DNA of 34,146 nt from the IMG/VR virus record IMGVR_UViG_2541047954_000008; one strand, 5' to 3'. The stretch's first letter is position 1. The number at the start of each line of letters is the position of its first letter. Source of the stretch: a virus. Taxonomy: Duplodnaviria; Heunggongvirae; Uroviricota; Caudoviricetes. The notes under the pieces were generated by a model. The model ran no database searches and had not been told where the DNA came from. It saw nothing but the letters and a program-made list of their open reading frames with translations. Shown here one piece after another: positions 997 to 26,142 of this stretch. The position numbers and the translations under genes are program-made.

Positions 997-1056
997 TCGT
1001 CATGCTCCATAAACGACAAAACCGCCCGGAGGCGGTTTCACATAAAACATTTTGCA

Positions 1057-1728
1057 TCAGCGACCAATCACCACAACCTGACCACCGTCCCCTTCGTCTG
1101 CCGTGCTGATCTCCTGAGAAACCACGCGCGACCCCACGCGCATTTCACCGTACAGAACCGGCAGAACATTGCCCTGAGCAACCATGTTATCCAGTGAGGA
1201 GAAATAGGTGTTCTGTTTGCCGTTATCCGTTGTCTGTGTACGGGGAGTTCTGGCTTTCGGTGCCAGCATCTGCGCCACACCACCGAGCACCATACTGGCA
1301 CCGAGAGAAAACAGGATGCCGGTCATACCACCGGCCCCAATGGCTGCCCCCCATGCTGCAAGGGTGGCTCCGGCAGTAAAGAATGATCCGGCAATGGCGG
1401 CAGCTCCCAGGACAATCTGGAATACACCACCTGACTTGGCCCCGGCGACTCTGGGAACAATATGAATCACAGCGCCATCAGGCAGAGTCTCATGTAACTG
1501 CGCCGTTAATCCGGACGTGCTGACATCCCGCCCGGCAATCCGTACCTGATACCAGCCGTCGCTCAGTTTCTGACGAAACGCCGGGAGCTGTGTGGCCAGC
1601 GCCCGGATGGCTTCGGCCCCCGTTTTCACACGAAGGTCGATGCGGCGGCCAAATCGTTGTAAATTCCCGTAAAGGCAGATGCGTGCCATGCCCGGTGACG
1701 CCAGAGGGAGTGTGTGCGTCGCTGCCAT
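1057..1728 (-). CDS. I: Tail tip assembly protein I
   Basis: 223-aa ORF, Gly/Ala-rich hydrophobic C-terminal half, overlaps K by about 100 nt as in lambda; sequence recalled as lambda I-like. Confidence 0.8.
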   Translation of the reverse strand: MAATHTLPLASPGMARICLYGNLQRFGRRIDLRVKTGAEAIRALATQLPAFRQKLSDGWYQVRIAGRDVSTSGLTAQLHETLPDGAVIHIVPRVAGAKSGGVFQIVLGAAAIAGSFFTAGATLAAWGAAIGAGGMTGILFSLGASMVLGGVAQMLAPKARTPRTQTTDNGKQNTYFSSLDNMVAQGNVLPVLYGEMRVGSRVVSQEISTADEGDGGQVVVIGR

Positions 1729-2369
1729 TTGTCGGTATACCTCTCTCGTTTGCTCAGTTGTTCAGGAATATGGTGCAGCAGCTCGCCGTCGCCGCAGTAA
1801 ATGGCGGCATGATTCGGCACCGATGAACCAAAACAGCACAGCAGCACATCGCCCGGCTGCGCCTCTGTCAGTGCGACACGGTAAAAACCAGTCGCCTCCA
1901 TATTTTCAAGATAGAGATTCTGGCCGTTACGCCACCAGTCATCCCCGCGATAAAAATCCGGCATCTCAATTTCCGCCAGATGGTATGCATCCCGGAACAG
2001 CGTGTAACAGTCCGTCACCCCGTGCTCAAAGCGCCGCCCGGTAAGATGTGGCACACAGCGGAACTTGTGAATCGCCCCCCGGCAGACCAGCCACCACGGC
2101 AAATCACTCTGCACCTGCAGCCGCCTGTCAGCCTCACTCAGCCAGGGCAGACCACCGGGGTGGCTGTGGACCAGTGCCACAACCTCCCCCTGCATTTGTG
2201 CACGCAGCCAGTCCTCCGGCGACATCCGGAAATACGCCTCCGGCTCACCGGAGATATTCACGCAGGGAAAATATCTGTCCCCCTCCGGCGTTCTCACCAC
2301 GAAGCCGCACGACTCCACTGGCGCACATCGCCGGGCGTGCGCCAGAATCGCTGATTCTGTCTCTGTCAT
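1626..2369 (-). CDS. K: Tail tip assembly protein K (JAB/MPN-like HSHP motif plus NlpC/P60-like Cys region)
   Basis: ATG at 2369-2367 (MTETESAIL) 4 nt after L stop; motif ALVHSHPGG; track ORF 1626..2444 trimmed to first ATG. Confidence 0.75.
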   Translation of the reverse strand: MTETESAILAHARRCAPVESCGFVVRTPEGDRYFPCVNISGEPEAYFRMSPEDWLRAQMQGEVVALVHSHPGGLPWLSEADRRLQVQSDLPWWLVCRGAIHKFRCVPHLTGRRFEHGVTDCYTLFRDAYHLAEIEMPDFYRGDDWWRNGQNLYLENMEATGFYRVALTEAQPGDVLLCCFGSSVPNHAAIYCGDGELLHHIPEQLSKRERYTDKWQRRTHSLWRHRAWHASAFTGIYNDLAAASTFV

Positions 2370-2373
2370 GGGT

Positions 2374-3072
2374 TTACTGCGAAAGTTTGTTAATGGAAAG
2401 GTAGCCGCCAAAATTGCCGACGTTATTGCGGAACTTGCAACCACTCAGGCATTTGCTGCACTTATCCTTCGTGATATCGGACGTTGGCTGGTCATATTCA
2501 TCCGCGACCGCCGGGCCATCATAACCGCACTCATCGCCGCGGTAGATCCAGGTGCAGGTGTTGGCCAGCATGATGCGCCCCGGAAAAACAGCGCCATCCG
2601 TTTCCGTCGGTGTGGACAGCACAAAAGAGGCACTCACCGCGCTCAGTTCGCTGCACTGTTCGATGCGCCAGCGGCTGATCACCTCCTGCTCCGGATCGGC
2701 GTCACTGTTTCCGTTGACGAAGTTCACCGCATCCAGAAAACGGGCGTAAACCTTACGCCGGACCACCGTTCCGCCGACCAGACTCTGCAGATCTTCCGCC
2801 ATCCCGGTGACCATGCCGTACAGGTTAGAGACTTTAAGCGTTGGCCTTGCACTGGCTCCTTTGCCGTTCATCTCAAATCCGCTTCCCTGAATGGGATAAG
2901 CCTGATACTGCCGCCCCTGCCAGGTGACTGGTTCACCTTTTTCGTTCTGCTCATTACAGAAGAAATAACGATCTCCGCCGACCTCTGTCAGATCAATTTC
3001 CCAGAGCACGACCAGCGCGGATTGCTCCGTTTTAGTGCACTCATTGAGTGTATCCTGCTGTATATCCTGCAT
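2374..3072 (-). CDS. L: Minor tail protein L
   Basis: 232-aa ORF, start overlaps M stop (ATGA), Cys cluster CSKCLSGC near C-terminus; recalled as lambda L-like. Confidence 0.8.
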   Translation of the reverse strand: MQDIQQDTLNECTKTEQSALVVLWEIDLTEVGGDRYFFCNEQNEKGEPVTWQGRQYQAYPIQGSGFEMNGKGASARPTLKVSNLYGMVTGMAEDLQSLVGGTVVRRKVYARFLDAVNFVNGNSDADPEQEVISRWRIEQCSELSAVSASFVLSTPTETDGAVFPGRIMLANTCTWIYRGDECGYDGPAVADEYDQPTSDITKDKCSKCLSGCKFRNNVGNFGGYLSINKLSQ

Positions 3073-3413
3073 CAGTGAGTGACCTCTTCAAAGGTACAGT
3101 TAAAATCGGTATACATGGCATTATCCGAAATGCTCCACTCCCTGCAGACAACCCGGACAGTCCTGTTGTGTTTTGGCGGACGCCACAAAAAAGCACGAAT
3201 CCCGGCATGACGGGATAAAAAACTGTCCAGCGCGGCACGGGAATATTCATCTGTGACACGAAATACCGGTTTAAACGTTTTCAGATCCGCATTCAGACCA
3301 CCAGCCCGTCGCTGTTCATATCCGTCACCAAACTTTACCGTAATAACTGATGGCTTTCGTGTCGTCTCCATCCCCTCACGGGGGATCCAGTTAAAAACTT
3401 CAGGCTCAGGCAC
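3072..3413 (-). CDS. M: Minor tail protein M
   Basis: GTG at 3413-3411 preceded by GGAGGA at 7 nt; FGDGY motif; position between tape measure and L. Track ORF extends to 3458 on weaker starts. Confidence 0.65.
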   Translation of the reverse strand: MPEPEVFNWIPREGMETTRKPSVITVKFGDGYEQRRAGGLNADLKTFKPVFRVTDEYSRAALDSFLSRHAGIRAFLWRPPKHNRTVRVVCREWSISDNAMYTDFNCTFEEVTH

Positions 3414-6400
3414 TGTACAATCCTCCATCCCGACGCGATGACTGCATAATTGACACAACCCTGCTGTCGATCAGATCCACCAGTCCCCTGGCTGAGCGCG
3501 CATCTATCTCGCCATTGCTCCCTTGATTCTGAATGCTGATGTGATACACGGGAGAATAAACAAATCCACCGCCACCATTCACATTTCCAATGGCCCTGAC
3601 CCCAAGAGAGCCGTCCGCTGCCCGTGTCAGTGGCATGATTGCTTCAGGCCCGGCCTCGCCCATCAACCCGGCACCTTTCGCAAAAGCAAAATACGTCGGT
3701 GTATCCACAATAGTGTTACTGTAAGCACTCAGATTTGCCGATGTGTAAACACCACCTTTTGCGTTTGCCACTACCCCCGAAATCCATCCGCCGACCGTAC
3801 CAAGCCACCCTCCGGCACCGGAGAGTGATTTCAGTCCGTTAACAATGGCTGCATTCATCAGAATTTTTGAAACTTCCCGGAGAACTGAACTCCCCCAGTT
3901 CCTCCAGTCCACAACATTCCCGGCCAGTGCATCGGAAATATTTGATACCAGCCCGTCCATCGTGGAAACGACAGCATCTGCCGCCTGTGAAGCATAATCG
4001 GTGGCACTGTCTGCCCAGTTGGTCAGTCCCTCCTGGAGTCCGGCATTCCAGTTATTACGTAAAGCATCGGCCTTTGCATAATAATCCTGCTGATCGCTGA
4101 GACGCTCTTCCAGATATTTTTTATTCAGTTCTTTCTCCTGTTTCCACAGGGCTTCTTCAATTTCTCCGGCCTGATACTGTCTCAGCAGCTCGTTATTTTT
4201 CTGCTCAAACGCCTGCCGGATACTCCACATTTCCTGGAGTCGTTCACGCATCCGTGAGCCTTCACCATATCCCAGCAACTGCGCTTCGTCAGATGCCCGG
4301 GCACTGGCATTACTGTCCGCCAGACTGCTCTCATACGCAGCAAGCTGCTCACGAATCTTTTTCTGGTCGATGAGTGCTGCATTCTGCAAAAGCGTTTTTT
4401 TCTGCGCTTCTGACAGGGTTGATAATTCGCCCTGACTGACCTGATATTTCATCTTAGCCAGTTCAGTATTCTGCCCTGCCAATGCTATTTGTTCTTTTTG
4501 CTGTTTAATCAGCCGTTTATAAATATCTTCTGTTTTTTCCGCTTCGGTCTTTTTATGCGCTTTGGGTTTATTTGCCTGGTTATTTCGCCAGGCATCCAGT
4601 GAGGTATTGATATAATTCTGTCTGGCTGTCTGATACGCCTCTCCCACAAAGCCGAGATCATCCGCAGCATAACCCAGGCGGGCACGCTCACGGGCTTCCC
4701 CCTTCAGGCGGGACAGAGCCAGTTCGCGCTCGCTGTTATTCAGTGCGGTCTGCTGTTTATCATCCAGGGTTGCCTGTGGTAGCCGTAACGGTACATTCAC
4801 CAGCCCCTGTCGCTGCTGAAGTAATTCATTACCGAGCCCGAGAAGGCGATTAAACTCGGTATGCTGCCCATTCATGATCAACAGGGACTGATACGCTTTG
4901 TTTTGTTCCGCGGCCTGTTGACGGATCAACGCCACCCGTCGCTCCTCCAGCCCGGCAAGCACATCCTGAATGGATTGCGCTTTGCCCTGCATTTGTGTGA
5001 GACGGGACTGTTCAACTGCCAGTTGATTTGTTGCTTCTGCAAGCCCTTCTGTGACAGTTTTTACCGACGTCATGTGGTTAATCATAAAACCGTTATCGGT
5101 TGTCCAGCCCGGGTTTGCCAGCACATACTGATAGCCAGCAATTTTTTCCTGTAAGGATTTAATCTTACTTTTCTGCTCGTCAATTAACCTGTTTTGCTCA
5201 TCAAGTGCCTGCCGCGTCTTTTCCTCATTATCTGACGCTTCAGGAAGCGACATTGCCGACGTTTTCTGGCGAATTTCGTCGATTGTTGCGGCATACTGGC
5301 GTGCAGATTCTCTGGCCTGCTCCTGATTCTGATACATCGTGTACCAGGCCGTCGCCCCCAGCATGACTAGTCCCGGCACACCACCAACCAACCCCAGCGC
5401 ACCACTTAACAGACGACTCCCCACTGACGTGACAGTATTCAGCGTTGTCTGTGCCGCTGTTCTGGCCGCAATATTACGGGTAAGTGACGCCTGGGCAGCT
5501 GTCAGCTTCGCTTCTGCTGCGGCCTGCCTTTCGGTACCGCGAGCAGCAACAACCGCCTGTTGCGCACGATAAACCGCCGCACGCGCCCTGGCGGTTGCTA
5601 TCTGTGTCCCCCGAAGTTGCGCTTCAGCAAGAGCCACTTCGTTTCTGGCTGCAGTAATTAATCCGGCAGTTGCAGATCCAGCAGACGACGCCATATTGCC
5701 AAAATATCGGGCTCCCCCGACGGCAACCAGTGCGCCAGCTGCAGCAGCCACGGTATCAATATTGTCTGCAACACCATTCAACACCCCGGTGAGTGTCTTT
5801 GTCACTCCGCTTGCCTCGTTCGCACCACCAACCCAGGCCATAAAGGCGTTTTCAACTTTGGTTGCAGAGGATGAAACAGTATCAGGCATTGCTGCATATT
5901 CATCACGCAACGCCCCAAGCTGACTAATCAGTGCAGGAACAACCTTATCGGCGGTCAGTTTTCCGTTATCCGCCATGGCCTTCAGATCCTTACGGGCAAC
6001 ACCCATTCCCGCAGCCAGCGCACGAATAACACGATCGCCGTTCTCATTCACAGAGTTAAATTCTTCACCGCGCAGCACTCCCTGCGCCAGTGCCTGACTG
6101 AACTGCGTGATCACCGAACTGGCTTCTGCTGTACTGGCACCGGATAATTTCAGGCCCGTGGAGATCGCCTCGGTGACTTTCAGTACCTCCTCAGAACTGT
6201 AGCCATACTCCCGCATGGAAGCTGCAGAGCGGGCAAAAAGGCTGGCGTTATCAGAAAACGCCGTTCCCGTTCTCTGGCTGATTGCCATTAATTCACGTTG
6301 TGATACCTGAAAATCATCACTGGACTGTGAAGCCTGCTTCAGACGGGCATTGACTGAATTCCACTCATCGGCGAGAGAAATAAGATGACCGGTAGCAAAA

Positions 6401-6633
6401 GCTCCGGCAAATGCCCCCGCCATATTCAGTGCCGAAGATTTAGCTGTATTTATCTGATCCGTCACTTCTGCCAGTGCACGCCGCATTTCACGGGATGCAG
6501 CAGCGGACTGCCGGCCTCCGTTCTGCATGGTACGGTAGTAATCCTGCCCCATACGCGAAGCCCGGGAGATCTCTGACTGGAATGACCGGGAATTTGCCGA
6601 GATTTTAATAATCAGTTCACGTAATGTCGCCAC
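3406..6633 (-). CDS. H: Tail tape measure protein
   Basis: 1075-aa ORF, long coiled-coil/Ala-rich segments, GTG start with GGAG 7 nt upstream, position after G-T chaperones. Confidence 0.85.
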   Translation of the reverse strand: MATLRELIIKISANSRSFQSEISRASRMGQDYYRTMQNGGRQSAAASREMRRALAEVTDQINTAKSSALNMAGAFAGAFATGHLISLADEWNSVNARLKQASQSSDDFQVSQRELMAISQRTGTAFSDNASLFARSAASMREYGYSSEEVLKVTEAISTGLKLSGASTAEASSVITQFSQALAQGVLRGEEFNSVNENGDRVIRALAAGMGVARKDLKAMADNGKLTADKVVPALISQLGALRDEYAAMPDTVSSSATKVENAFMAWVGGANEASGVTKTLTGVLNGVADNIDTVAAAAGALVAVGGARYFGNMASSAGSATAGLITAARNEVALAEAQLRGTQIATARARAAVYRAQQAVVAARGTERQAAAEAKLTAAQASLTRNIAARTAAQTTLNTVTSVGSRLLSGALGLVGGVPGLVMLGATAWYTMYQNQEQARESARQYAATIDEIRQKTSAMSLPEASDNEEKTRQALDEQNRLIDEQKSKIKSLQEKIAGYQYVLANPGWTTDNGFMINHMTSVKTVTEGLAEATNQLAVEQSRLTQMQGKAQSIQDVLAGLEERRVALIRQQAAEQNKAYQSLLIMNGQHTEFNRLLGLGNELLQQRQGLVNVPLRLPQATLDDKQQTALNNSERELALSRLKGEARERARLGYAADDLGFVGEAYQTARQNYINTSLDAWRNNQANKPKAHKKTEAEKTEDIYKRLIKQQKEQIALAGQNTELAKMKYQVSQGELSTLSEAQKKTLLQNAALIDQKKIREQLAAYESSLADSNASARASDEAQLLGYGEGSRMRERLQEMWSIRQAFEQKNNELLRQYQAGEIEEALWKQEKELNKKYLEERLSDQQDYYAKADALRNNWNAGLQEGLTNWADSATDYASQAADAVVSTMDGLVSNISDALAGNVVDWRNWGSSVLREVSKILMNAAIVNGLKSLSGAGGWLGTVGGWISGVVANAKGGVYTSANLSAYSNTIVDTPTYFAFAKGAGLMGEAGPEAIMPLTRAADGSLGVRAIGNVNGGGGFVYSPVYHISIQNQGSNGEIDARSARGLVDLIDSRVVSIMQSSRRDGGLYSA

Positions 6634-6654
6634 ACTCGTTCTCCGGACGAAAAA

Positions 6655-6670
6655 AACCGCCGAAGCGGTT
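6655..6670 (-). terminator. Hairpin plus U-tract element between T and H (accgc-cgaa-gcggt followed by T7 on the coding strand)
   Basis: Read directly: forward aaaaaaaccgccgaagcggtt; lies in the 45-bp gap between T stop and H start. Confidence 0.35.
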
Positions 6671-6678
6671 ATGTTGAC

Positions 6679-7352
6679 TCACTGAGACACTATTAAAAGC
6701 GCGTTTTCCAGTCCGGCAAATGGATCTGAGACGCCTTCTGTCTGCTCTTGTTCCCACTGAAGAAGCGCATCATTCAGTGGGACTTTGACACCCTGCGCAC
6801 CGTAAACCGCAGAAACTATCTGGGCAGCCCGGATATCAGCCCGCTCGTCACCCAGCGGGCTGAACCTGTCAAATTCTGCCCACATCATGATTTCTGATGC
6901 GGACATTTCCCGGCGTAACTCTGACAATGTGCGCCCCATCCTGAGCGCCAGCATCATCAGAAAACGCATCCCCGGAAGCTCTACTTTTTTTTAACCTCGC
7001 CGGCATCACTGATCAGTTCCAGAGACTGCCGAAGAAGCCGCGCATGCACCGGGCCATACACGGCAATCACCTGTTCACGATCATCCTCTGAAAATACAGG
7101 TTGCAGTCCGGTATCACACAGAACATCAATGAACAGTTCAACATCTGCCTCCAGATTTCGGCGGGCGCGCTCCGCAACGGATAACGGTGTCTCATCATCT
7201 TTTGCTTTAACGATCTCCTGCCAGCGCAACCAGGCTTCTGCAGAAGGTTCCCGTAATACAACCGTTGCCCCTTCCCATTCAGGCACATCAACAGTTTTAT
7301 GGCGAAACCCCGACATCGTTGCCAGTGCCAGATTGCGGATATTTTTAGTCAT
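6679..7352 (-). CDS. T: Tail assembly chaperone G-T fusion made by programmed -1 frameshift at 6984-6990
   Basis: Heptamer A_AAA_AAG in phase at the last G codons; -1 shift enters the 6679..6969 ORF frame (..KKVELPGMRFLMML..); frame arithmetic checked. Confidence 0.6.
6981..7352 (-). CDS. G: Tail assembly chaperone G
   Basis: ORF 6981..7367; preferred ATG at 7352-7350 has AGGA 8 nt upstream; ends ...EVKKK-TAG on the slippery run. Confidence 0.7.
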   Translation of the reverse strand: MTKNIRNLALATMSGFRHKTVDVPEWEGATVVLREPSAEAWLRWQEIVKAKDDETPLSVAERARRNLEADVELFIDVLCDTGLQPVFSEDDREQVIAVYGPVHARLLRQSLELISDAGEVKKK

Positions 7353-7366
7353 CACATCTATCCTCA

Positions 7367-8071
7367 TTAACTGACGGTAACAGTGCAGGAAGTGGAGGTC
7401 ACCTTGTTAACAGGGCTTGCTGAATCAGAAATCTCGCAGGTATACGCACCGGCATCACCTGATGCTGCTGATGCCTTACTGAATGTTGCCGCCGTCTGTC
7501 CGGAAACAGGAGAACTACCTTTCTTCCAGACATAAGAATAAGGCGGCACACCACCGGCAGCCTCAACCACCATTTCGAGTTTCGCTCCGGCAGAAACCTG
7601 CAGCGTGCTGTTTAAATCGACCTTCACTTTCAGCGGCTCTGTCGTCAGCACAGGTTTACCTTTCAGGCGCAGGGAAAACGTTGCAGCCACAACACCATTA
7701 GTTCCTGCAGACCAGGTATGCTGACGCACCTCTGCCATAAAGGTAAATCCGTTGCCTGACGGAAAAATAACTTTAAAGCCATACGTGGTGTCATTGTCAT
7801 AGGCACTGCGCAACGCGTTCTGGGCAGCATTGAGGTAAAAGTTGCCTGACATGGAAATCTCTGACGCGGCACCAAGGCCGTTAATATTTTCCTGCTCAAC
7901 AGAACACAGCGTGGTGACATCAATATCCTGCTTTTGTCCTGCGGTAAACTGCACCTCTTTGATTGTACAGCTCAGGCCAAGATAGCTGGCAGAATCCAGG
8001 GTTTCTGCTGTTACCGGTGCAGACGAAATCATAATTTTCGTCAGTTGCGAACGCTCAAAATTAGAGGACAT
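7367..8071 (-). CDS. V: Major tail protein with C-terminal Ig-like domain
   Basis: ATG 8071-8069 with AGGAGA upstream; C-terminal Thr/Ser/Val-rich segment typical of Ig-like tail decoration domains; position before G. Confidence 0.65.
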   Translation of the reverse strand: MSSNFERSQLTKIMISSAPVTAETLDSASYLGLSCTIKEVQFTAGQKQDIDVTTLCSVEQENINGLGAASEISMSGNFYLNAAQNALRSAYDNDTTYGFKVIFPSGNGFTFMAEVRQHTWSAGTNGVVAATFSLRLKGKPVLTTEPLKVKVDLNSTLQVSAGAKLEMVVEAAGGVPPYSYVWKKGSSPVSGQTAATFSKASAASGDAGAYTCEISDSASPVNKVTSTSCTVTVS

Positions 8072-8093
8072 ACTCGTCTCCTGAAAATAAAAA

Positions 8094-8110
8094 ACCCGCC
8101 AGCGGCGGGT
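8094..8110 (-). terminator. Hairpin plus U-tract element between U-like gene and major tail gene
   Basis: Forward aaaaacccgccagcggcgggt; on the coding strand the stem is followed by TTTTTTATTTT. Confidence 0.35.
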
Positions 8111-8130
8111 GGGTAAAATCATTAACGACC

Positions 8131-8475
8131 TCAGGCTATTACCTGAAATTCAAGCGTGGCTCTGCTCAGACGGGAATCAGGATCATAACCCTGAGTTTTA
8201 GAAATAACGGAGGGTGCAAGTTGCCTTACCGCATCAAGCGCCTGCTCACGGATATCATCTGCGTCATCAGGTACTGTTGCCCAGACATCGATCTGCACGG
8301 TAATTCTGGATTCAGCCTGACCATCAAGCACATCAGACGCAGTGTCAGACACCACAGAAAATACCAGCCATGGCGGAGATACCGCAGGCTTTCCCTCCGT
8401 CAGCGGGACCACATAAGGATAAACCTGTCCTCCGGCCAGTTGAGACAGCAGGGAATACAGTGTGGTCTCTCTCAT
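8131..8475 (-). CDS. Tail terminator / tail completion protein (U position)
   Basis: 114-aa ORF between neck genes and major tail gene; assignment by synteny only. Confidence 0.5.
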   Translation of the reverse strand: MRETTLYSLLSQLAGGQVYPYVVPLTEGKPAVSPPWLVFSVVSDTASDVLDGQAESRITVQIDVWATVPDDADDIREQALDAVRQLAPSVISKTQGYDPDSRLSRATLEFQVIA

Positions 8476-9256: not shown

Positions 9257-9264
9257 GAATCCTC

Positions 9265-9570
9265 CTATGTTCCGGGATGAAATCGATACATCCGCAGTCC
9301 GGTATAGAAAAAATCAGGCACTGCATCCTGCATTTCCCTGTTCTCGTACCAGTAGCCAACCAGTTGCATAAGACGCAGTTTTATCAGAGGTGTTATTACA
9401 AGCCCGGTCGTATCCTGCTCAGAAACAGTTTCATCGTAAAGCGTCCGGTTTAAAAACTTTTCAGCCTCTTCCCTGGCAGCAGCCAGATACATCATAAGAA
9501 GAGAATTCTCCTGTTCATTGTCATCATCAATCCGGCACTGAACACGAAGCTCTTCCAGAGTGGGCATCAT
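9265..9570 (-). CDS. Head-tail connector (gp6-like) protein
   Basis: 101-aa ORF, acidic N-terminus, synteny after major capsid gene. Confidence 0.5.
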   Translation of the reverse strand: MMPTLEELRVQCRIDDDNEQENSLLMMYLAAAREEAEKFLNRTLYDETVSEQDTTGLVITPLIKLRLMQLVGYWYENREMQDAVPDFFYTGLRMYRFHPGT

Positions 9571-9581
9571 TTGGGCAACCT

Positions 9582-9770: not shown

Positions 9771-9790
9771 GATTCTTTCACCTGTCAGAA

Positions 9791-9816
9791 CAGGGGGCGC
9801 ACTTCTGCGCCCCCTG
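9791..9816 (-). terminator. Perfect 11-bp stem, 4-nt loop hairpin just downstream of major capsid gene (no U tract)
   Basis: cagggggcgca-cttc-tgcgccccctg read directly; begins 6 nt after the capsid stop codon. Confidence 0.4.
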
Positions 9817-9821
9817 AATGA

Positions 9822-11027: not shown

Positions 11028-11041
11028 CGTATTTCTCCTGA

Positions 11042-11692
11042 TTAGAAGTTTAGATTTTTCAGTGCATTCAGTGCAGAGCCCACATCCTCAGCGTCGCGCA
11101 GGGACAGTGCGCCATAGCCCCCGGCCATGAATGCTTTGGCCTGGGTACGGGAGAGTCCGACATCACGCAGGACTCTTTCGATTTTTTTCTGTTCGGGGAT
11201 TTCCCCGCGGGCCAGTGCGTTCTTGACGTCGCTGATCCGCGCCTCATCGTTAGACGGGAACGTCACCAGGCTGACTTCCCAGAGGTCGATTTCTTTCAGC
11301 AGAAAGGCTTCTTTGCTCCGGTCGTATTCCCAGTCTTTCAGGACGTACCCAATAGAAAGGCCGGTTAACGAACCGGCCTTCATGTGTGCATGTGCGCGTT
11401 TTGCGAGGGGATCATCATCAATAAGCAACCGTCCCCTGACGTAAAGCCCGACATCGTCTTCCTTCATTTCGGTGTAAACACCGATGGGTTCATCCATGCG
11501 GTGCTGCCAGAGCAGCGCAGGTAACGCTTTTCTGTCACTCCACGCCCGTAGGGAAGCAGCAAATGCCCCGGACATCACCACATCATCGTGGCTGTCCTTT
11601 ACACCAAAGACGGAGCCATACCCTTCAAACTCACCGGAGTCACTGACAGATTTCAGACTCAGCGGTACATCAAGACGTTGTTTCGTCTGCAT
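11042..11692 (-). CDS. Prohead protease (HK97 family)
   Basis: ATG 11692-11690 with AAGGA upstream; overlaps portal 3' end; synteny portal-protease-capsid. Confidence 0.75.
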   Translation of the reverse strand: MQTKQRLDVPLSLKSVSDSGEFEGYGSVFGVKDSHDDVVMSGAFAASLRAWSDRKALPALLWQHRMDEPIGVYTEMKEDDVGLYVRGRLLIDDDPLAKRAHAHMKAGSLTGLSIGYVLKDWEYDRSKEAFLLKEIDLWEVSLVTFPSNDEARISDVKNALARGEIPEQKKIERVLRDVGLSRTQAKAFMAGGYGALSLRDAEDVGSALNALKNLNF

Positions 11693-13093: not shown

Positions 13094-13104
13094 AATGACC
13101 TCGG

Positions 13105-14862
13105 TTAAAGCGAGCGGATGCCCACGCTGACCAGATGTTCAGACAGATCCAGCTCCGGTTCACCACCATTGACCAGCATCCGGCTCATTGCTGTAAACAT
13201 CGCAACAGGGCCGTCGATTTTGGCTTCCAGCGTGGATTTATTCGGGAAGATATTGTCGTTTTTGTCCGGTTTTACCGTAACGTTAGACATCATCCAGTTC
13301 ATGACCGGATGATTGCTGTGATGGAAACGCCCGGCATAGACCAGTGATTCCGTTTCCTTCATGGCCTCTGACAGATTGCGAACCGTCTGCGGAACCTCCA
13401 CCAGCGGTATCCCTTCTTCAGCCAGTGCCAGGCTGAACTGCATCGCGCTCCACGGGTCAAATCCCAGTTCCCTGAGGTTTTCACCACCAATCCATTCCAG
13501 TAAGTCACTTTTTATCTGAGCATGATCGATAACATCACCATCCGTCAGAATCAGCTTATCCATCTCCGCCCACTTCCGGTAAAGTTCTGCCTGCTGCCGC
13601 GAGCATCGTTCCAGCCGTCCTTCCGGAAGCCAGAATTTAAAATCGGCATGAACATGCCCGTTATCCGTTCGCCAGAGTTTTGCCGCCGCACAGATATCAA
13701 TCTTATGAGCAAGGTCAACGCCGACCCACATGGGATACGTTTTCAGCTCATGTCGTGGGGCAATGTATTCGCACTTCTCCCACTTAATCATGTCCATCCA
13801 GGCAGACTCTGCTGTTACCCACACATTCATGTGTTTGGTAAAAAAATTCACCCGCGCAGAGACCTGTTCTTTCGCTTTTTTCGCCAGGCGACGCAGATCA
13901 TCCCAGCGTTTACAGATGCCCAGGCCGGGATTCGCTTTCTGCCAGACCGTTTCATCAAACGGATCATCTCCCTCATCGAGGGTGTAAATAATCGCAAAGT
14001 AGGAGTCGTCTTTTACCGCGCCCTCCACGTCGCTGTTATAGCCACGCAATACCTTGATGGCGTAATCACGCTGCTCGTAACAAATCCCTTCCTTGTTAAA
14101 CCCTGCCGTGGTGATACCAAATAAAAGGGACTGCAGACGGGCACCGGTTGCCGTTTCCAGAACGTCCCACACGTCACGGGTTTTATGTGCATGCAGCTCA
14201 TCAATAATGGCGCAGTGGATGTTCAGACCATCTAGGTTGTTTGCATCCGAAGAAAGCGGTTCAAATTTTGATGCGCTCTGCTCCTGGTAAATCGCCAGCT
14301 TGTTGAAATCAAACAACCGCCCGAGTGTCGACCGGGCTTTTCTGACCATATTTTTGGCGTCTTCAAACACGATTCTGGCCTGGTCACGCGTGGTTGCGGC
14401 TGAATACACCTCAGCTCCGCCTTCACCATCTGCCCCCGTCATATACAGGCCGATACCCGATGACAGAGTTGATTTTGCGTTTTTACGGGCGACTTCGTTG
14501 TACGCCGTCCGGAACCGGCGCACCATCACCGGACGTCCGCTGCCATCGCTGCGCATGACAACTTCCCCGGTCTCTTCATTGACCAGCGGAATGACAAAAC
14601 CAAAAATATTAATGAGGATAAATACATGCCAGTCCATCAACTCAATGGGCTGGCCTGCCAGCGCCCCTTTTACATGAGGCACAAATTTGTAGAAATTCAG
14701 GATGTGCTGCGCACGGGGTTCACTGAAATAAATCCCCCGCTCTTCGCCGTACTTCAGATCATCAAGAAAACGCTGGCAGGCCAGGCGGACAAATTCGCCA
14801 GCAACAATTTCTCCTGCAACAACACGTTCGGCGTAGCGGATCCCGTCAGCCACTTTTGCCAT
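13105..14862 (-). CDS. Terminase large subunit
   Basis: 585 aa; start overlaps small-subunit stop (ATGA); position between small terminase and portal. Confidence 0.9.
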
Positions 14863-15344
14863 CAGTCTCTCGCTTTTAAAAGCTCCGCCAGCGGATCAAC
14901 ATCATCCGGTCCGGCGATATTTACTTTAGCCCGGCTTGCCGGTGACATACCAAACTCTGCAAGCATTGCCCGGATCCGCTTCCAGGCATCCGCTTTCATT
15001 GCCGCCGCGGGGTGCGCCTTAATCAGTACATCACCGCTCTGCGTTTTCGTGCGGTAGGTATACCCCTCAACATCGAGTGTTTCGCAGTGATGCCGATATT
15101 CGGTGTAGGCTTCCACCAGCAACTCGAGCGCACGCGCATCAAGCTGAGAAATGATCCCTTCCGCATTCAGCTCTTCCGCCATTCGCCTGAACCAGTACTT
15201 CCCCTGAGCCCCTAAATGCTGCGGAATTTTAGGAAGACCTTTTTCATCCTTTTTAGCGGTTTTTTTGTGGTCTTTAACGGGGCGCTTTGAGGGGTTGCCT
15301 CGAATCAAATGCAGGCGTGGCGGGGTTTTCGGAGGTCCTGACAT
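14862..15344 (-). CDS. Terminase small subunit (P27/HK97-type)
   Basis: 160 aa, basic N-terminus, immediately upstream of large subunit. Confidence 0.75.
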   Translation of the reverse strand: MSGPPKTPPRLHLIRGNPSKRPVKDHKKTAKKDEKGLPKIPQHLGAQGKYWFRRMAEELNAEGIISQLDARALELLVEAYTEYRHHCETLDVEGYTYRTKTQSGDVLIKAHPAAAMKADAWKRIRAMLAEFGMSPASRAKVNIAGPDDVDPLAELLKARD

Positions 15345-15492
15345 AATCGGTCTTACCTATCAATCGTTTGTTCACATTTCCAAAAAAAAGTTTTCGAACC
15401 TGCGGCGATGTGAGGAAGGGTCAGGCGGCGGTACTGAGCAGCCTGGGCTGCAGAGATTTGACCCGCCCCTCCCCTACAGATGGGAACTGTTA
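15345..15492. other. Candidate cos / packaging site region between HNH gene and terminase small subunit
   Basis: 148-bp non-coding gap in the HK97-type position; GC-rich ggcggcg and gacccgcccc motifs; inverted gggtca (15418-15423) / tgaccc (15459-15464). Confidence 0.35.
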
Positions 15493-15843: not shown

Positions 15844-15885
15844 AAATACCTCATACCCTGCGAAATGTTTACCACGATAAAAAGG

Positions 15886-16880: not shown

Positions 16881-16935
16881 GGATATTTATCAGGATGCTA
16901 CCAATGAAAGATACTGGAAAGCCAACTGCAAAAAG

Positions 16936-17250
16936 CTAACAACCCGTAATCGAGTTATCAGAACTGTTAATTTTTATGGTATACCGCGCCTCTGAACAGG
17001 GGCGCGTTTGTGGCAACAGCTCGTCCCCTTCACATAACCCGGCAGCAACATCCAGGAAGACCTGTCTGATGCTCCTTCTGGCTGCTGCCTCATAAAACTC
17101 CAGCGCGGCACCTTCAACACGGTCCAGCGAGATGTCCAGGTCAAAAATTTCACCGTCAAAGCGTTTTTTGTCCCGTAACGCTAAAGTTACCGTAACTTTA
17201 TTCTCAAAATTGCGGATCCCTTTCACAATCAGTTCATAGTTTTGAGTCAT
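16936..17250 (-). CDS. Hypothetical protein between holin and endolysin (YdfR-like position)
   Basis: 104 aa, GGGGAGAG upstream of ATG; same placement as ydfR in the Qin lysis cassette as recalled. Confidence 0.55.
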   Translation of the reverse strand: MTQNYELIVKGIRNFENKVTVTLALRDKKRFDGEIFDLDISLDRVEGAALEFYEAAARRSIRQVFLDVAAGLCEGDELLPQTRPCSEARYTIKINSSDNSITGC

Positions 17251-17254
17251 TGAA

Positions 17255-17470
17255 TTACTCTCCCCGTGCAGCCTTACGCTTGTCTTCTCTGATTTTGAAG
17301 TACAGATTTGTCAGATAAGTCAGGAAGCCCAGAACCAGACTCCCCAGTACACCAATCGCAGCCCACTGTGACGGACTGACCTGATCAAGCCACTGTAAAA
17401 ACCAGTAGCCAGCACTGCCTGCGGAGGTGCCGTAGGCAATGCCCGTTGAAATTTTGTCCATGGATTTCAT
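17255..17470 (-). CDS. Holin, phage-21-type pinholin with dual-start motif MKSM
   Basis: 71 aa with two TM segments; ATG codons at 17470-17468 and 17461-17459 would give 71- and 68-aa forms; GGAGGTGAGG upstream. Confidence 0.85.
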
Positions 17471-17763
17471 AGCCTCACCTCCGCAAATAACGGATGGCGT
17501 AGTTTTACACTGAGAAATGAAAGGGATTTGAAAAGAAAAAACCGCAAAAGCGGGCGAAACGATATATACAGTAAGGAAAGCACTCTATCCAACAAACCAC
17601 CCACAGTTAATCGGAATAAAAGCAGAGTGCTTATGAATGATCGCCTGCCCGAAGGTTAGTATTTCTGCACAGCAATTTTGCAAAAAAAAAGCGATCATTC
17701 ATAACTTAAACGTCTTTCAGTCACTCAGGGATTTCCCATCATCGCAGACTGAAAGACTCTAAC

Positions 17764-17838
<75 letters not shown>

Positions 17839-17841
17839 ATA

Positions 17842-17917
<76 letters not shown>

Positions 17918-17919
17918 AC

Positions 17920-17996
17920 TGGACCGCCACCGGGGACTCGAACCTCGCACACTCAACTTAAAGGGTTGACGCTCTTTCCTGATGAGCTAGTGGCGG
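17920..17996 (-). tRNA. tRNA-like gene, anticodon UUU (Lys) if canonical, with C at position 33
   Basis: Acceptor CCGCCAC/GTGGCGG, anticodon stem UCAAC/GUUGA, loop CCUUUAA, encoded CCA; noncanonical C33 and one T-stem mismatch. Confidence 0.5.
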
Positions 17997-17997
17997 T

Positions 17998-18073
17998 TGG
18001 TGGCCCTTGCTGGATTTGAACCAGCAACCTGGCGATTATGAGTCGCTCGCTCTCACCACTGAGCTAAAGGGCC
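17998..18073 (-). tRNA. tRNA with CAU anticodon (Ile2 lysidine-type or Met), ileX/ileZ-like
   Basis: Acceptor GGCCCUU, anticodon loop CUCAUAA, T-loop TTCAAAT, encoded CCA. Confidence 0.7.
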
Positions 18074-18198
18074 GGGCGCGAAATAATACATATGCCAGTT
18101 CAGCTCTGCAATACCCCACACACACCTGATTCAATCCTGTATCTGCTTCATACATGGTAAAAAGTATGAGCAGCCAACAAAAAGTTACTCAGGCAATA

Positions 18199-18972
18199 TT
18201 AACGTACTCTGACTACATTAATTTTGAAGTCATCAATCTGCCCGCTATTAAGTATAACGAATGTAGAACTCCCATTACTGTACGATTCCGACAATATCAG
18301 CCGATCATCATAGCGTGCAAGAACGTAATACCAGACACTCTCATAGCGAATCATCTGATATTCATTCTTAAACTGGGGCTTGTACCAACCGGCAATAAGT
18401 GAAAATCCCCAGAAATAGATCATGAACCCAGCCATCATACACTCAATCCAGTGATGGCGAATAAAAGACATGTCCGAAAAAAATTTTACTGAAATAAGTC
18501 TTCTTCCTGACCTGACAAAAAACGTAATTATTAAGGCAGCAATAACGCATAAAACCAGTGCATCTGGCGCAACGCGTCGATGAATTACTGAAAACTCCAG
18601 AGCAGGCGGAACAAAAAGCAATAATATCGCCAGAAAAAGTCTGATAAAACTCAGATCCTGCACATTATTTTTTTGTTTGATCCCCAGGAAGAAAAAAACA
18701 CCTGTTCCCCATCCAATCAGGAATATAACAATGACTGTAACAGCATAAAAAAGGCTCCGGGCCACATCATCGACACCAGCCCCAACAACCCACCATGGGA
18801 AACCATAGTAAAAGGAAGTTCCCCAGCCATAGAAGTAAGCGCTCCCCCACCCAAGACAGCCCATATAAGCAACAAAAAGTGAAGAGTGCCTGAGCAGAGT
18901 ACTGTCATCCATAGCAACACCATTAACAACCCAAAAACATAACAACACATTGCATAACAAATGAAGCTCCAT
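18199..18972 (-). CDS. AT-rich cargo gene: polytopic membrane protein (about 6 TM helices, ~65-aa C-terminal tail), function unknown
   Basis: 257-aa ORF in a visibly AT-rich segment; hydrophobic runs e.g. FYAVTVIVIFLIGWGTGVFFFLGI; between the tR'-like terminator and the tRNA array. Confidence 0.6.
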   Translation of the reverse strand: MELHLLCNVLLCFWVVNGVAMDDSTLLRHSSLFVAYMGCLGWGSAYFYGWGTSFYYGFPWWVVGAGVDDVARSLFYAVTVIVIFLIGWGTGVFFFLGIKQKNNVQDLSFIRLFLAILLLFVPPALEFSVIHRRVAPDALVLCVIAALIITFFVRSGRRLISVKFFSDMSFIRHHWIECMMAGFMIYFWGFSLIAGWYKPQFKNEYQMIRYESVWYYVLARYDDRLILSESYSNGSSTFVILNSGQIDDFKINVVRVR

Positions 18973-19058
18973 TTAGTCAAGAAGCTTCATAGCAGGAAAA
19001 ACTCATAGCACAATCGCCATCACATTTAATGTTCTGTGTCTTTTTCGGGTATAAAAAA

Positions 19059-19074
19059 CCCGCTCGGCGGCGGG
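19059..19074 (-). terminator. tR'-like intrinsic terminator downstream of the Q-like gene
   Basis: Forward aaaaaacccgctcggcggcgggtt; on the transcribed strand the hairpin is followed by TTTTTT; 68 bp past the Q stop. Confidence 0.5.
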
Positions 19075-19141
19075 TTGTGCTTGCTTTTGCCATCACGTAC
19101 AAAATCGGCAAAATATCAGATTTGCATGAAATATATGCCTT

Positions 19142-19831
19142 TCAATCTACTTTTGCAACACTTTGCTTTGAAAATGCCGCCTTTTGTATTGAACGTATTC
19201 TCATTACAAACAATAAAGCCTCACTATCCAGTCGGTGAAAAATGTGTTTCATTGCAACCCAGTGACGAGTAAATGTTTTGGACCAGTTTTTAGTTGTCAC
19301 TCCCGCCAGTAATGCCAGCTCCTGGTATTCATAACCTTCCCCACCAAAAAGTTCTGCTTTTACTGCCTGCGCCGCCAGCCAGATTAATTTTTTCAGGCGT
19401 TCCTGCGTTTTCCCTGCAATTTTTCTGGTACCGGATTGAGTATTAAATTCATTCCACGCCCACTGTGTTATCGCGATCTGATATTCCCAACAAATACTCC
19501 CGCTGTAACACCACAACAACCAGGCTTTATGATGTTCTTCAAGAGACAGAACAGCCCGCCGCCACGATGATGTCGAAAACTCAACCGGACTGACCAGAGG
19601 AATTGACGTCCCCTTCGCCAGCGATTGCTTTCCCGGGATTGGTGGATTATCCCGCGTTATCATTTTTCCAGTCACTTCATCGCGGTACCGGATTTTTTTT
19701 CGCCTGTAACGCCCTGTATCGAACATGGCATTCTCTTGCCAGGCTTCAAGCTGACCTTTTGTTGCCCCACTCAAATCAGCGGTGGCGATAATGAGCTGCT
19801 CACGCACAAACTGTAAATACTGGTTATTCAT
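19142..19831 (-). CDS. Putative late-gene antiterminator (Q-like)
   Basis: ATG 19831-19829 overlaps RusA stop (ATGA), GGAG upstream; position between RusA and a terminator preceding the lysis genes. Call by synteny. Confidence 0.55.
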   Translation of the reverse strand: MNNQYLQFVREQLIIATADLSGATKGQLEAWQENAMFDTGRYRRKKIRYRDEVTGKMITRDNPPIPGKQSLAKGTSIPLVSPVEFSTSSWRRAVLSLEEHHKAWLLWCYSGSICWEYQIAITQWAWNEFNTQSGTRKIAGKTQERLKKLIWLAAQAVKAELFGGEGYEYQELALLAGVTTKNWSKTFTRHWVAMKHIFHRLDSEALLFVMRIRSIQKAAFSKQSVAKVD

Positions 19832-20193
19832 GCGCACTCCAGTTCTGTGATTTTTATCCCCAGCCGCCCACCAGGAACGAGCTGACCGCGCACAATATTG
19901 ATTTCATCAAACTGCTCGTCGTCTATAAGTAGTCCGGCATGCGTCAGCGCATCCAGTGGTGCCTTCAGGATATTGTCCAGGTCGCGGCGGCGCTTATCCG
20001 GTGGCTCTGCAATAATCTTTATCGCCAGCCTTCCGGACAGGCTTAATTTCAGCCGCTGCTGGCGAACAATTAGCGCCACATCACGGCGATAACGCTTTCC
20101 AGCTTCCGAGATGAAATACGTATTGCCATGACGTCGCCAGTAGGTATTCACCGTCGGCGGGTAAGGCAAAACAAATTCTATGCGTTCAGTCAT
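19828..20193 (-). CDS. rusA: RusA-family Holliday junction resolvase
   Basis: 121 aa; motifs YPPTVNTYWR and DKRRRDLDNILKAPLDAL recalled as RusA-like. Confidence 0.8.
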   Translation of the reverse strand: MTERIEFVLPYPPTVNTYWRRHGNTYFISEAGKRYRRDVALIVRQQRLKLSLSGRLAIKIIAEPPDKRRRDLDNILKAPLDALTHAGLLIDDEQFDEINIVRGQLVPGGRLGIKITELECA

Positions 20194-21249
20194 TCATGCT
20201 TTCCACTTCAGGACACCCGAATTTCTCGCGTGCATTAAAAAACGAATCAGCAACAACAGCTGGCTGCCGTGTTTTTCTTCAAAATCTTTTACCCCGGCGT
20301 GCAGTTCGTTATGACATTTACGGCACAGCGGAATAACAAACAAATCATCAGCCTTTGTTCCCATCCCTCCCAGTCCATGACCAATGATGTGATGCGGATC
20401 ATCTGCCTGATTACCGCACGTCATGCATTTCTGCGTTTTTACCCAACGCGTGTATACAGGCATCTCTTCCCGTTGTGGTTTCTGGCGCTGGAGATACTGA
20501 GCCGGTGACTCCGGATCAACGGCAATGCTGACCACCGTCTTTTCCTGTGGCGGGTTTTGCTGGTGGGCGTGAGGCAGCGGCGCAAGATTTTTTGTGCGCT
20601 GCTTCAGTATGCTGGTGGCGGTCTGCTCTCCCGGTACGATGTCGCTTTCACGGTACATTGAGCGGATTTTTTCCGCACGCAACCCCAGCGAACGACGTAA
20701 TACCGCTTCCGGTAGCGCGTCCGCCACCTGATTGCGGACCGCCCACCAGGATAATTCAGCCAAAGATAATTCACGCTCCTGCGTACCGCTTATTGCGTGA
20801 CCGATGACGTCAATCATCCATGCTGACAGGTTTTGATGAGCAAGTTGCTCGAGTGATTCGGATGTCTGGTCACGCAGCTGGTTGTCGCAGTGCCAGCACA
20901 ACACCATTGCGCCGGTACCATAACGGTGAATGACGGTTTCGCTGTGATGATAATCGCCGTGTGGCCACTGGCAGGATTTAATATGGCGCAACAGCCAGTC
21001 AGACAATGCACCAGCACCACCAGCAGCACGAATCACCCGTGCGTTACTGAAAAACGGCAGCAATGTTTTGTCTTCCACCAGCGGCTGGCGAACGGCAGGA
21101 ACGACCCCGGACGGCAGATTACGCATGCTTTTCGGTTCCGGCTCCACCAATACCCGGGTATTGTGGAATACCGGCATGGATTCACGGCCCGGCTTAACGA
21201 TCACCAGCCCGAGTTCCGGTACCAGAACAGGTCGAAGTAATACCCGCAC
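20194..21249 (-). CDS. DUF968-type protein with C-terminal HNH-like motif (YdfU-like)
   Basis: 351 aa, GTG start with GGAGG upstream; C-terminal CMTCGN...HHIIGHG...CRKCHNELH. Confidence 0.65.
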   Translation of the reverse strand: MRVLLRPVLVPELGLVIVKPGRESMPVFHNTRVLVEPEPKSMRNLPSGVVPAVRQPLVEDKTLLPFFSNARVIRAAGGAGALSDWLLRHIKSCQWPHGDYHHSETVIHRYGTGAMVLCWHCDNQLRDQTSESLEQLAHQNLSAWMIDVIGHAISGTQERELSLAELSWWAVRNQVADALPEAVLRRSLGLRAEKIRSMYRESDIVPGEQTATSILKQRTKNLAPLPHAHQQNPPQEKTVVSIAVDPESPAQYLQRQKPQREEMPVYTRWVKTQKCMTCGNQADDPHHIIGHGLGGMGTKADDLFVIPLCRKCHNELHAGVKDFEEKHGSQLLLLIRFLMHARNSGVLKWKA

Positions 21250-21250
21250 G

Positions 21251-21529
21251 TTACCTCCAGATGCGTTGCTGGAATGTGCGAGACGGACGCGGTGGGCGTT
21301 CAGAGTAAGGAAGCCTGACGGAGATTATCCAGTGACGATAATCGAGGCTGAGGGCTTTCTTAATCTCGTATCCGTGTCTGCGGTAGCACTGAATTAGCCA
21401 CTCGGCCTGTTCTTCAGTGCATGGGTCATGCTGGAACCAGTCAGATTTGAAAGTGCGGGAACGCCGCCCGTGCCTGCTGGCAAAGACGGCAGAATCATCA
21501 GAATTGTGTAATTTGGTATCGTGCGCCAT
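21251..21529 (-). CDS. Hypothetical protein
   Basis: Track ORF 21251..21610 begins on TTG; first ATG at 21529 (MAHDTKLH) taken as start; weak SD. Confidence 0.4.
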   Translation of the reverse strand: MAHDTKLHNSDDSAVFASRHGRRSRTFKSDWFQHDPCTEEQAEWLIQCYRRHGYEIKKALSLDYRHWIISVRLPYSERPPRPSRTFQQRIWR

Positions 21530-21612
21530 CGGTTGTCTCTGCTGGCGCAGCAGGTGCCAGTTGTTCAGGCTGGCGTGCGAATTGTAAACCAGAATGCCAG
21601 GAAAAAACAAAA

Positions 21613-21626
21613 CCCGCCGAAGCGGG
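21613..21626 (-). terminator. Intrinsic terminator downstream of lipoprotein gene
   Basis: cccgc-cgaa-gcggg stem-loop followed on the coding strand by TTTTGTTTTTT. Confidence 0.45.
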
Positions 21627-21825
21627 TATGCTAAAACGAACTGAAAGTAATATACCGGACTTGTAAAGGAACGATAGAATAATTATTGGATTAAACCCTG
21701 ACTCAATCCAGATTTCATAGGCAACAACTACGGACTAATCATCACAGTCATGTTTGATAGGCTTAGTCCACATTGGGTGAGGGTTTACGGCGTTTTCACT
21801 AATAATTTATCGTCCAAGCTATACA

Positions 21826-22218
21826 CTACTGCCCTGTTTTAACGAAGTTTTTAAAGGAAACAACTGCCTGATAGGGGTTTGGTTGACAGCCAAACATATT
21901 ATCGCAAAAAGGCTTGATGAAAATTCTTGAGGATCCATCTTCATTTGGCATTTTACTCACTTGATAAGCGAGGAATGGACTATTTGGAGAGGGATTATAA
22001 GTGGAAATTAGCGTGTCTGTCGCCGTTTGAATTTTCCATGAGGAATTATTAGCCAACCAGAATTGCGCTCGTTTCCAATAAAAGTCACATTGCTTTTCAT
22101 CATTACATGTTAGTGGCTTCATTGCTTCTGCTTTCAACGCTGGATCGACCTTTGCTGCACACCCTCCCAACATTACTGTTGCAATCATTACACCTGCGAC
22201 TAAAACAAGTTTCTTCAT
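21826..22218 (-). CDS. AT-rich cargo gene: secreted lipoprotein, function unknown
   Basis: 130 aa; signal peptide MKKLVLVAGVMIATVMLGGC with lipobox Cys; AT-rich; terminator-like hairpins on both sides. Confidence 0.65.
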   Translation of the reverse strand: MKKLVLVAGVMIATVMLGGCAAKVDPALKAEAMKPLTCNDEKQCDFYWKRAQFWLANNSSWKIQTATDTLISTYNPSPNSPFLAYQVSKMPNEDGSSRIFIKPFCDNMFGCQPNPYQAVVSFKNFVKTGQ

Positions 22219-22361
22219 CTCCCTGCCCCATCAATAAAAGTTCGGTTCTCTAATAACTAGAGTTAATCAACGGAAAAAACGCCGAAGCGGGTTAAGTGTG
22301 GGTGCATTGAGGATGCCTGACTCATCAGAGGTGGCGAGGGATTTCTCCCCCGCCAGGTCTC

Positions 22362-26071: not shown

Positions 26072-26142
26072 ACTCACCTCTTCTGATACCGAATCTTTTT
26101 ACTCACGAGTTGCCGGAAGCGATTCGATATGGCTATTGTCAG

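Follow-up and report, generated by a model that had tools for sequence, protein, structure and literature searches.

Intercistronic hairpins of a lambdoid prophage

The DNA analysed here (the window, 34,146 nucleotides of IMG/VR record IMGVR_UViG_2541047954_000008) is a 34-kb lambdoid prophage sequence from E. coli; its head is of the HK97 type, its tail of the lambda type and its Q antiterminator of the 82 type. Profile matches place its right-arm and late genes on the minus strand, and its nearest sequenced phage is vB_EcoM-606R7 (97.5% identity across 88% of the first 24 kb of the window). We studied a series of short GC-rich hairpins followed by U-tracts, which recur between the genes of this strand. 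Very probably, they are canonical Rho-independent terminators that punctuate the operons of the prophage and are read through by Q-modified polymerase. The original prediction had listed seven such elements, and all of them were recovered at their positions on the minus (transcribed) strand; an eighth hairpin, immediately 3′ of the major capsid gene, had been overlooked. The eight hairpins, with their folding energies, are:

1019-1038, minus strand: hairpin between genes I and J (I/J), AAACCGCC-UCCG-GGCGGUUU, then UGUCGUUUAU, then the Shine-Dalgarno (SD) sequence GGAG of J; -16.2 kcal/mol, z -4.1
6655-6670, minus strand: hairpin between T and H (T/H), AACCGC-UUCG-GCGGUU followed by U7; -8.5 kcal/mol, C(UUCG)G loop
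8094-8110, minus strand: hairpin between the U-like gene and V (U/V), ACCCGCC-GCU-GGCGGGU followed by UUUUUAUUUU, directly upstream of the SD AGGAG and ATG 8071; -12.6 kcal/mol
9793-9814, minus strand: capsid-gene hairpin, GGGGGCGCA-GAAG-UGCGCCCCC, with a poor U-tract, UGUUCUGA; -20 kcal/mol
17542-17553, minus strand: pre-holin hairpin in the gap from the transfer RNA (tRNA) cluster to the holin gene, CCGC-UUUU-GCGG (4 bp) followed by U6CU4; -6.6 kcal/mol
19057-19076, minus strand: predicted tR′ hairpin, just downstream of Q; -11.2 kcal/mol
21612-21627, minus strand: early-right hairpin, ACCCGC-UUCG-GCGGGU followed by UUUGUUUUUU; -13.1 kcal/mol
22280-22293, minus strand: hok-end hairpin, CGC-UUCG-GCG (3 bp) followed by U6; -3.1 kcal/mol

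The genes around them have the layout of a Q-antiterminated late operon, with Q, pR′, tR′, and then holin, lysozyme, Rz, terminase, head and tail on one strand. RusA, a DUF968 gene, a hok/sok locus and an immunity region of the P22-Cro/cI type are located upstream of Q. From Q onwards the genes are:

19142-19837, minus strand: Q antiterminator gene (PF06323, 1e-90; phrog_304, 5e-108)
After Q, minus strand: 257-aa open reading frame (ORF) and four tRNA genes (tRNAs at 17764-18073)
17255-17470, minus strand: P21-type holin
After the holin, minus strand: lysozyme, Rz, HNH endonuclease and terminase
After the terminase, minus strand: HK97-type portal, protease and capsid genes
8131-8475, minus strand: tail terminator (U-like) gene
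True start at ATG 8071, minus strand: major tail protein gene (V)
6679-6969, minus strand: G and T genes
3406-6633, minus strand: tape measure gene H, with a GTG start
M, L, K and then I (1057-1728), minus strand
1-996, minus strand: J, ATG at 996, only the first 332 codons lying in the window

The elements are heterogeneous. The seven originally listed comprise three tail-operon terminators (I/J, T/H and U/V), a weak pre-holin site, tR′, a nin-type terminator of the early-right operon and the 3′ end of the hok mRNA. Their assignment to the late operon fails for the elements at 21613 and 22280, which lie outside it because they are upstream of Q. Folding with RNAfold gave strong hairpins at I/J, T/H, U/V, tR′ and the nin-region site, all of which have a stem of about 5–12 bp and a loop of 3–8 nt (1019-1038, 6655-6670, 8094-8110, 19057-19076 and 21612-21627). 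On the other hand, the pre-holin hairpin is weak and its 4-bp stem marginal, and the hok-end hairpin, with 3 bp and -3.1 kcal/mol, falls short of this range and is as degenerate as had been noticed. Six to ten U-rich positions follow each stem 3′, except that of the capsid-gene hairpin. The loop context CGCTTCGGCG is indeed shared by three elements.

According to the gap map and the gene identities, the tail-operon sites are in sense orientation, past a stop codon and outside coding sequence. All three share one minimal layout, in which the stop codon is followed after 8–20 nt by the hairpin, the U-tract, the SD sequence and the next start codon. Intercistronic gaps make up about 3% of the late operon, and all three tail-operon hairpins fall in them. 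The gaps concerned are 45–59 nt long and contain a terminator alone; in the shortest, the 45-nt T/H gap, 8 nt separate the T stop codon from the hairpin, and 21 nt separate the hairpin from the GTG of the tape measure gene.

Terminator prediction on the minus strand gave a result that depends on the stringency of the scan. A loose terminator scan found 23 sites where 20–22 are expected, and shows no enrichment. The first custom scan was too permissive (95 matches on the minus and 72 on the plus strand) and was replaced by a strict one, which demands a compact hairpin of -7.5 kcal/mol or lower, no fewer than four T among the 5 nt that follow and no fewer than six among the 10 nt that follow. 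On the minus strand of positions 1-22400 the strict scan found 10 sites, against 0.98 ± 0.91 (maximum 3) in 40 dinucleotide shuffles, and only 3 on the plus strand of the whole window. The enrichment is therefore about 10-fold over shuffles and strand-biased. Likewise, the motif CCGC-N3-8-GCGG was counted 11 times where 3.9 ± 2.0 are expected, a number reached in none of 100 shuffles, and 6 of the 11 occurrences are elements of the original list. The strict-scan and motif-shuffle counts together rule out a chance origin of the hairpins. An Rfam scan at the gathering threshold found no known small RNA (sRNA) at any of them.

One further match to this motif, at 23931-23946, was rejected as a terminator; it has no T-run and sits between an SD sequence and a start codon. 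The surrounding segment (23923-23952, minus strand) forms a perfect hairpin, CCGCCC-GAAA-GGGCGG, between the SD AGGAGG and the ATG of a 60-aa ORF. This resembles a ribosome-binding site in two parts, with the SD sequence pulled near the start codon by the hairpin.

Conservation at the tail junctions and counterparts in other phages

The positions of the tail-operon hairpins are conserved in related phages and their stems are retained as stems. At I/J, changes among close relatives fall chiefly in the loop or yield G-U pairs, while the stems of HK97, phage 1717 and the relative L223 differ from that of the window. In a small set of seven I/J variants, 49 of 49 pair cells are paired and 4 of the 7 pairs show double changes, a covariation score that none of 500 shuffles reached. 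The comparison at U/V was limited to HK97 and Stx2 phage 1717, and is narrow because the relatives found were mostly near-identical prophages. Among three phages whose V genes are about 71–73% identical, the stem, U-tract and SD sequence form the best-conserved block, with an invariant stem and a variable loop.

At T/H we surveyed 80 IMG/VR relatives; single-protein searches had returned mostly near-identical prophages. A hairpin with a T-run stands directly before the SD sequence of H in all 80, with four different stem sequences, or at least six once the hairpins of phage 1717 and HK97 are added. In 55 relatives the arrangement is empty, as in the window. The remaining 25 carry between T and the hairpin an ORF of 111–123 aa with 31–42% GC, compared to 48–58% in its flanks, and 15 of these 25 use the window's own hairpin, AACCGCTTCGGCGGTT. 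This layout of an ORF plus a terminator is the classical architecture of a moron. Morons come with a promoter and a terminator of their own, and HK97 gp15, located at the T/H junction, is the founding example (PMC3594210). The window differs in that its T/H gap has neither an ORF nor an evident promoter; as at U/V and I/J, only the terminator of a cassette is present. The T/H terminator of the window is thus an empty moron position, and the element that in relatives closes a moron cassette. The U/V site holds no moron in any genome examined.

Moron cassettes were recognized at T/H in six relatives (L013, L025, L070, L071, L079 and L081). There are at least three unrelated low-GC moron genes at this junction, found for instance at 511-855 in L013, L070 and L079 and at 480-852 in L025, L071 and L081. 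One of the products is a membrane protein with a C-terminal, zinc-ribbon-like CxxC...CxxC motif, and the remaining ones are lipoprotein-like or secreted small proteins. Like HK97 gp15, these genes are candidates for superinfection exclusion or defence.

BLAST homology to diverged phages restarts at the 5′ edge of the hairpin at U/V (query positions 141-142), and within or beside the hairpin at T/H (query positions 131 and 143), which locates the hairpins at module boundaries.

The U/V terminator is also relevant for gene annotation. The longest ORF of the major tail protein runs through it, both in the window (7367-8122) and in the relatives L001 (6251-7006) and L245 (11910-12755), and the major tail annotations of GenBank records ON470580 and NC_011357 also begin upstream of it. 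These annotated starts are probably wrong, since the PHROG matches start from residue 18 and ATG 8071 has a good SD sequence before it. In practice, this is an annotation error carried by several database records, which place the start of the major tail ORF upstream of a terminator.

Similar elements are present in well-studied phages. The original prediction had assumed that lambda lacks terminators inside its tail operon. This is not the case, since lambda carries an I/J hairpin at 15465-15480 whose stem is that of the window (AAACCGCC-TGCG-GGCGGTTTT), as well as terminator-like hairpins at D/E, E/FI and J/lom; the E/FI hairpin (7163-7180) is the positional analogue of the capsid-gene hairpin at 9793-9814. 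The curated record of phage 434 (OL657226) has the feature "terminator" at D/E, at I/J (15466-15485, the stem being identical to those of the window and lambda), after Q (42034-42059), before the holin gene (45673-45709) and in the nin region. In HK97, seven putative terminators are annotated inside the late operon (AF069529; Juhala et al. 2000). One of them (6692-6719), between gp11 and the major tail gene, has a stem, AACCCGCC/GGCGGGTT, orthologous to that of the U/V hairpin, and another (5192-5213), after gp5, is the analogue of the capsid-gene hairpin. The HK97 terminators before H (8398-8422) and before J (15107-15129) stand behind the morons gp15 and gp22/23, respectively, whereas the window has the terminator alone at both places, and their stem sequences are unlike those of the window. 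At all three tail positions, hairpins followed by T-runs also occur in Stx2 phage 1717, with the U/V orthologue at 12000-18.

HK97 and 434 jointly cover the positions seen in the window (before the major tail gene, before H, before J, after the capsid gene, at tR′, before the holin gene and in the nin region), and their elements have the same form, i.e., an A-run, a GC stem, a loop of 3–6 nt and a T-run abutting the SD sequence. For P22-like phages such as phage L, Rho-independent terminators have likewise been predicted within a late operon that is served by one promoter (PMC8022706); these phages have the virion module of a podovirus, and the positions differ from those in the window. Intra-operon terminators have been described as common in lambdoid late operons, and partial termination or the blocking of non-antiterminated transcription have been proposed as their roles (PMC8022706). 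Both the phenomenon and these very positions are therefore already known and annotated in HK97, 434 and related phages, internal late-operon terminators having been annotated since the HK97 and HK022 genomes, and the value of our finding as a discovery is limited. What the comparison brings out is that the positions before V, H and J are kept across the tails of lambda, HK97, 434 and Stx phages while the stem sequences turn over, and that the T/H terminator is common to genomes with an empty position and genomes with a moron.

Proposed termination at tR′ and in the late operon, and its alternatives

The hairpin at 19057-19076 lies about 45–70 nt downstream of a conserved promoter-like site just past Q (TTGCAA-17-TATATT, 19158-19130). 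The 3′ end of Q, the promoter and the hairpin can all be aligned to the Q82-like region of phage 434, where one change in an arm of the hairpin gives a G-U pair. From this arrangement, the hairpin is predicted to be tR′, the terminator of the short constitutive pR′ transcript and the first that Q would have to override. The pR′ promoter is always active, and in lysogens its transcription is terminated immediately downstream (PMC7547250). At the hairpins, an Rfam scan by E-value gave only a full-length match to isrK (RF01394) at 19053-19125 (minus strand), the span of which coincides with the predicted transcript of about 70 nt from pR′ to tR′. IsrK is an Hfq-binding RNA of the Gifsy-1 prophage, and the score of the match in the window (22.8 bits, E = 0.089) is far under the gathering score of 50. 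Lambda 6S, StxS (PMC7547250) and Gifsy-1 IsrK (PMC4825925) are all short pR′ leaders ended by the first late terminator, as predicted here, although lambda 6S has no sequence similarity to the predicted leader of the window. The arrangement suggests that the pR′-tR′ transcript may be a leader RNA of the StxS/IsrK/6S type.

That the elements might be attenuators which Q-modified polymerase overrides was among the possibilities raised at the outset, and it is essentially the standard as well as the best-supported reading. From the sequences, their folding, their strand and location in gaps, the positional conservation, the compensatory stem changes and the association with morons, we infer termination in vivo, its efficiency and its override by Q. 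In a lysogen, polymerase starting at the constitutive pR′ promoter would halt at tR′, and polymerase coming from moron promoters, spurious promoters or read-through would halt at the next internal terminator before V, H or J. After induction, Q would load on polymerase at pR′ and render it terminator-resistant, so that the whole late operon could be transcribed; with intrinsic terminators inside the operon, Q antitermination needs to be processive. The hairpin at 21612-21627 would be an analogous gate in the early-right operon upstream of Q, presumably overridden by that operon's own antitermination. The likely benefit would be that neither the constitutive pR′ nor moron promoters nor spurious starts switch on the late genes in a lysogen. 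Insulation of the lysogen, partial attenuation and RNA stability are the candidate physiological roles.

Several points weigh against this interpretation. Five of the strict-scan sites fall within coding sequence (1314-1338, 1834-1859, 9315-9340, 11359-11378 and 14317-14335), which means that a hairpin followed by a T-run is, as a pattern, not fully specific. The T/H hairpin is modest, with a z of -0.5 by RNAfold against shuffles of its own GC-rich segment, the U-tract at I/J is interrupted (UUUUGUCG; UUUUGUCGUUU), and the pre-holin and hok elements are so weak that they cannot be called terminators with confidence. The covariation result at I/J comes from few sequences, and the divergent ones among them were chosen as hairpins. 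Furthermore, our literature searches gave no 3′-end mapping for this phage or for lambda I/J, and those aimed at Term-seq of lambda late transcripts and at classic work on lambda late expression returned nothing usable. Finally, the role of insulator is inferred here, the literature giving the role of such terminators as unknown (PMC8022706).

Could the hairpins act mainly after transcription, as barriers to 3′ exonucleases or as 5′ stabilizers left by RNase processing, with little termination? Stabilization of mRNA 3′ ends, which had been proposed for the whole series, is possible as a secondary role, and some hairpins may trim or stabilize mRNA segments. The best fit is the capsid-gene hairpin, which at -20 kcal/mol resembles the lambda E/FI hairpin in standing without a good U-tract behind a gene for one of the most abundant proteins; the HK97 hairpins after gp5 and gp12 point in the same direction. 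However, the fit is poorer in the tail, where the three hairpins follow low-abundance genes (U-like, T and I) and retain long U-tracts, which are needed for termination and not for an exonuclease block, and where the T/H hairpin in relatives closes independently transcribed morons. As a general explanation, we consider it unlikely. Even less probable is that the hairpin and U-tract serve the translation of the downstream gene, as a U-rich ribosome standby site, as an S1 enhancer or by uncoupling the translation of V, H and J from that of the preceding cistron. The constant distance of 16–29 nt from the 3′ end of the hairpin to the start codon and the abutment of the U-tract on the SD sequence in the window, HK97, lambda and 1717 would agree with such a function. 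Yet constant spacing is expected anyway from a minimal gap made of a terminator and a ribosome-binding site, tR′ and the nin site are built alike with no start codon close by, and a translational enhancer would not require stems to be kept by compensatory change.

The last alternative, also raised in the original prediction, is that a small repeat, either REP/BIME-like or a mobile miniature element, has dispersed through the prophage and that the hairpins are its copies. Alignment of the seven elements shows that the hairpin and T-tract cores are alike (mean pairwise local score 12.5 vs. 5.6 for shuffles), and CGCTTCGGCG is common to three of them. The likeness does not extend to the flanks, whose scores are at chance level both over the upstream 30 nt (5.48 vs. 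5.26 ± 0.27 shuffled) and over the downstream 30 nt (5.24 vs. 5.02 ± 0.24). In other phages each element is kept with its own neighbours, and orthologous positions hold unrelated stems. Moreover, the core is generic across phyla, as the exact 17-mer CCGCTTCGGCGG[GT]TTTT was matched in over 120 contigs, whose sources include Pseudomonas, Burkholderiales, Bacillota, Cyanobacteriota and Saccharibacteria, which indicates convergence on a UUCG tetraloop closed by a GC stem. Such stems are a frequent terminator design in E. coli. We regard a repeat family as the least credible of the explanations, with hardly any chance of being right.

If the tail-operon hairpins are terminators, they may also bear on how morons are gained. 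Since homology to diverged phages restarts at the hairpins, and the same T/H hairpin is found with and without a moron, they might be fixed "sockets" at the 5′ edge of the V, H and J modules, where morons captured upstream borrow the resident terminator, and they could release Hfq-binding 3′-end RNAs in lysogens. This idea is speculative, and we think it more probably wrong than right by a wide margin. Were it true, the sockets would be organizers of lambdoid mosaicism and of RNA crosstalk between prophage and host.

Pre-holin, early-right and hok elements, and other features of the prophage

The pre-holin hairpin has a 5-bp version in 606R7, and phage 434 has an unrelated annotated terminator (45673-45709) at this position. 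The interval from tR′ to the holin gene is the moron site that in Stx phages is occupied by stx. In the window (17764-18972, minus strand) it holds the 257-aa ORF, which matches phrog_1521 but nothing in Pfam, together with four tRNA genes (Met, Lys, Thr and Gly); in the closest phage record, only three tRNAs and a different short ORF are annotated there.

The hairpin at 21612-21627, which is identical in 606R7, belongs to the early-right operon and lies upstream of the DUF968-RusA-Q cluster. In 434, an annotated nin-region terminator (37035-37065) occupies the corresponding position, and by sequence and position the hairpin of the window is an intrinsic terminator of the nin-region type, outside the late operon. 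Further upstream, the nin-equivalent region contains a toxin-antitoxin locus of the hok/sok type (22280-22700, minus strand), with an Rfam sok match at 22512-22686 (113 bits) and a hok ORF at 22362-22574. The element at 22280 is the 3′ end of the hok mRNA, and its degenerate hairpin is equally degenerate in 606R7. The 5′ sequence of this mRNA, GGGUGCUUGAGG, is complementary over 12–13 nt to CCUCAAUGCACCC near the 3′ end, in the style of the tac/fbi fold-back, and the hairpin sits just past this 13-nt complementary stretch. The RNAduplex energy of the two mRNA ends was -47 vs. -41 ± 5 for shuffles, a difference that is statistically uninformative.

Other features of the window were observed in passing. 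Between the HNH endonuclease and the small terminase subunit, a 148-nt gap (15345-15492, minus strand) contains GC-rich inverted segments and a T8 run; it is probably the cos region of an HNH-dependent packaging system of the HK97 type. A 13-bp hairpin at 25557-25587 (plus strand, -21.3 kcal/mol) lies antisense inside a 358-aa ORF (25001-26077) that aligns with a region labelled "DNA replication protein O" in the closest phage record, and this hairpin may be origin-associated. The left arm (29385-33255 and 28689-28740, plus strand) resembles Rac/Qin. It includes the sRNA DicF at 28689-28740 (plus strand, 76.7 bits in Rfam), an 813-aa RecE-like exonuclease VIII with an Rv2179c-like exoribonuclease domain, and an integrase adjoined by a tRNA-Ser, the probable attachment site.

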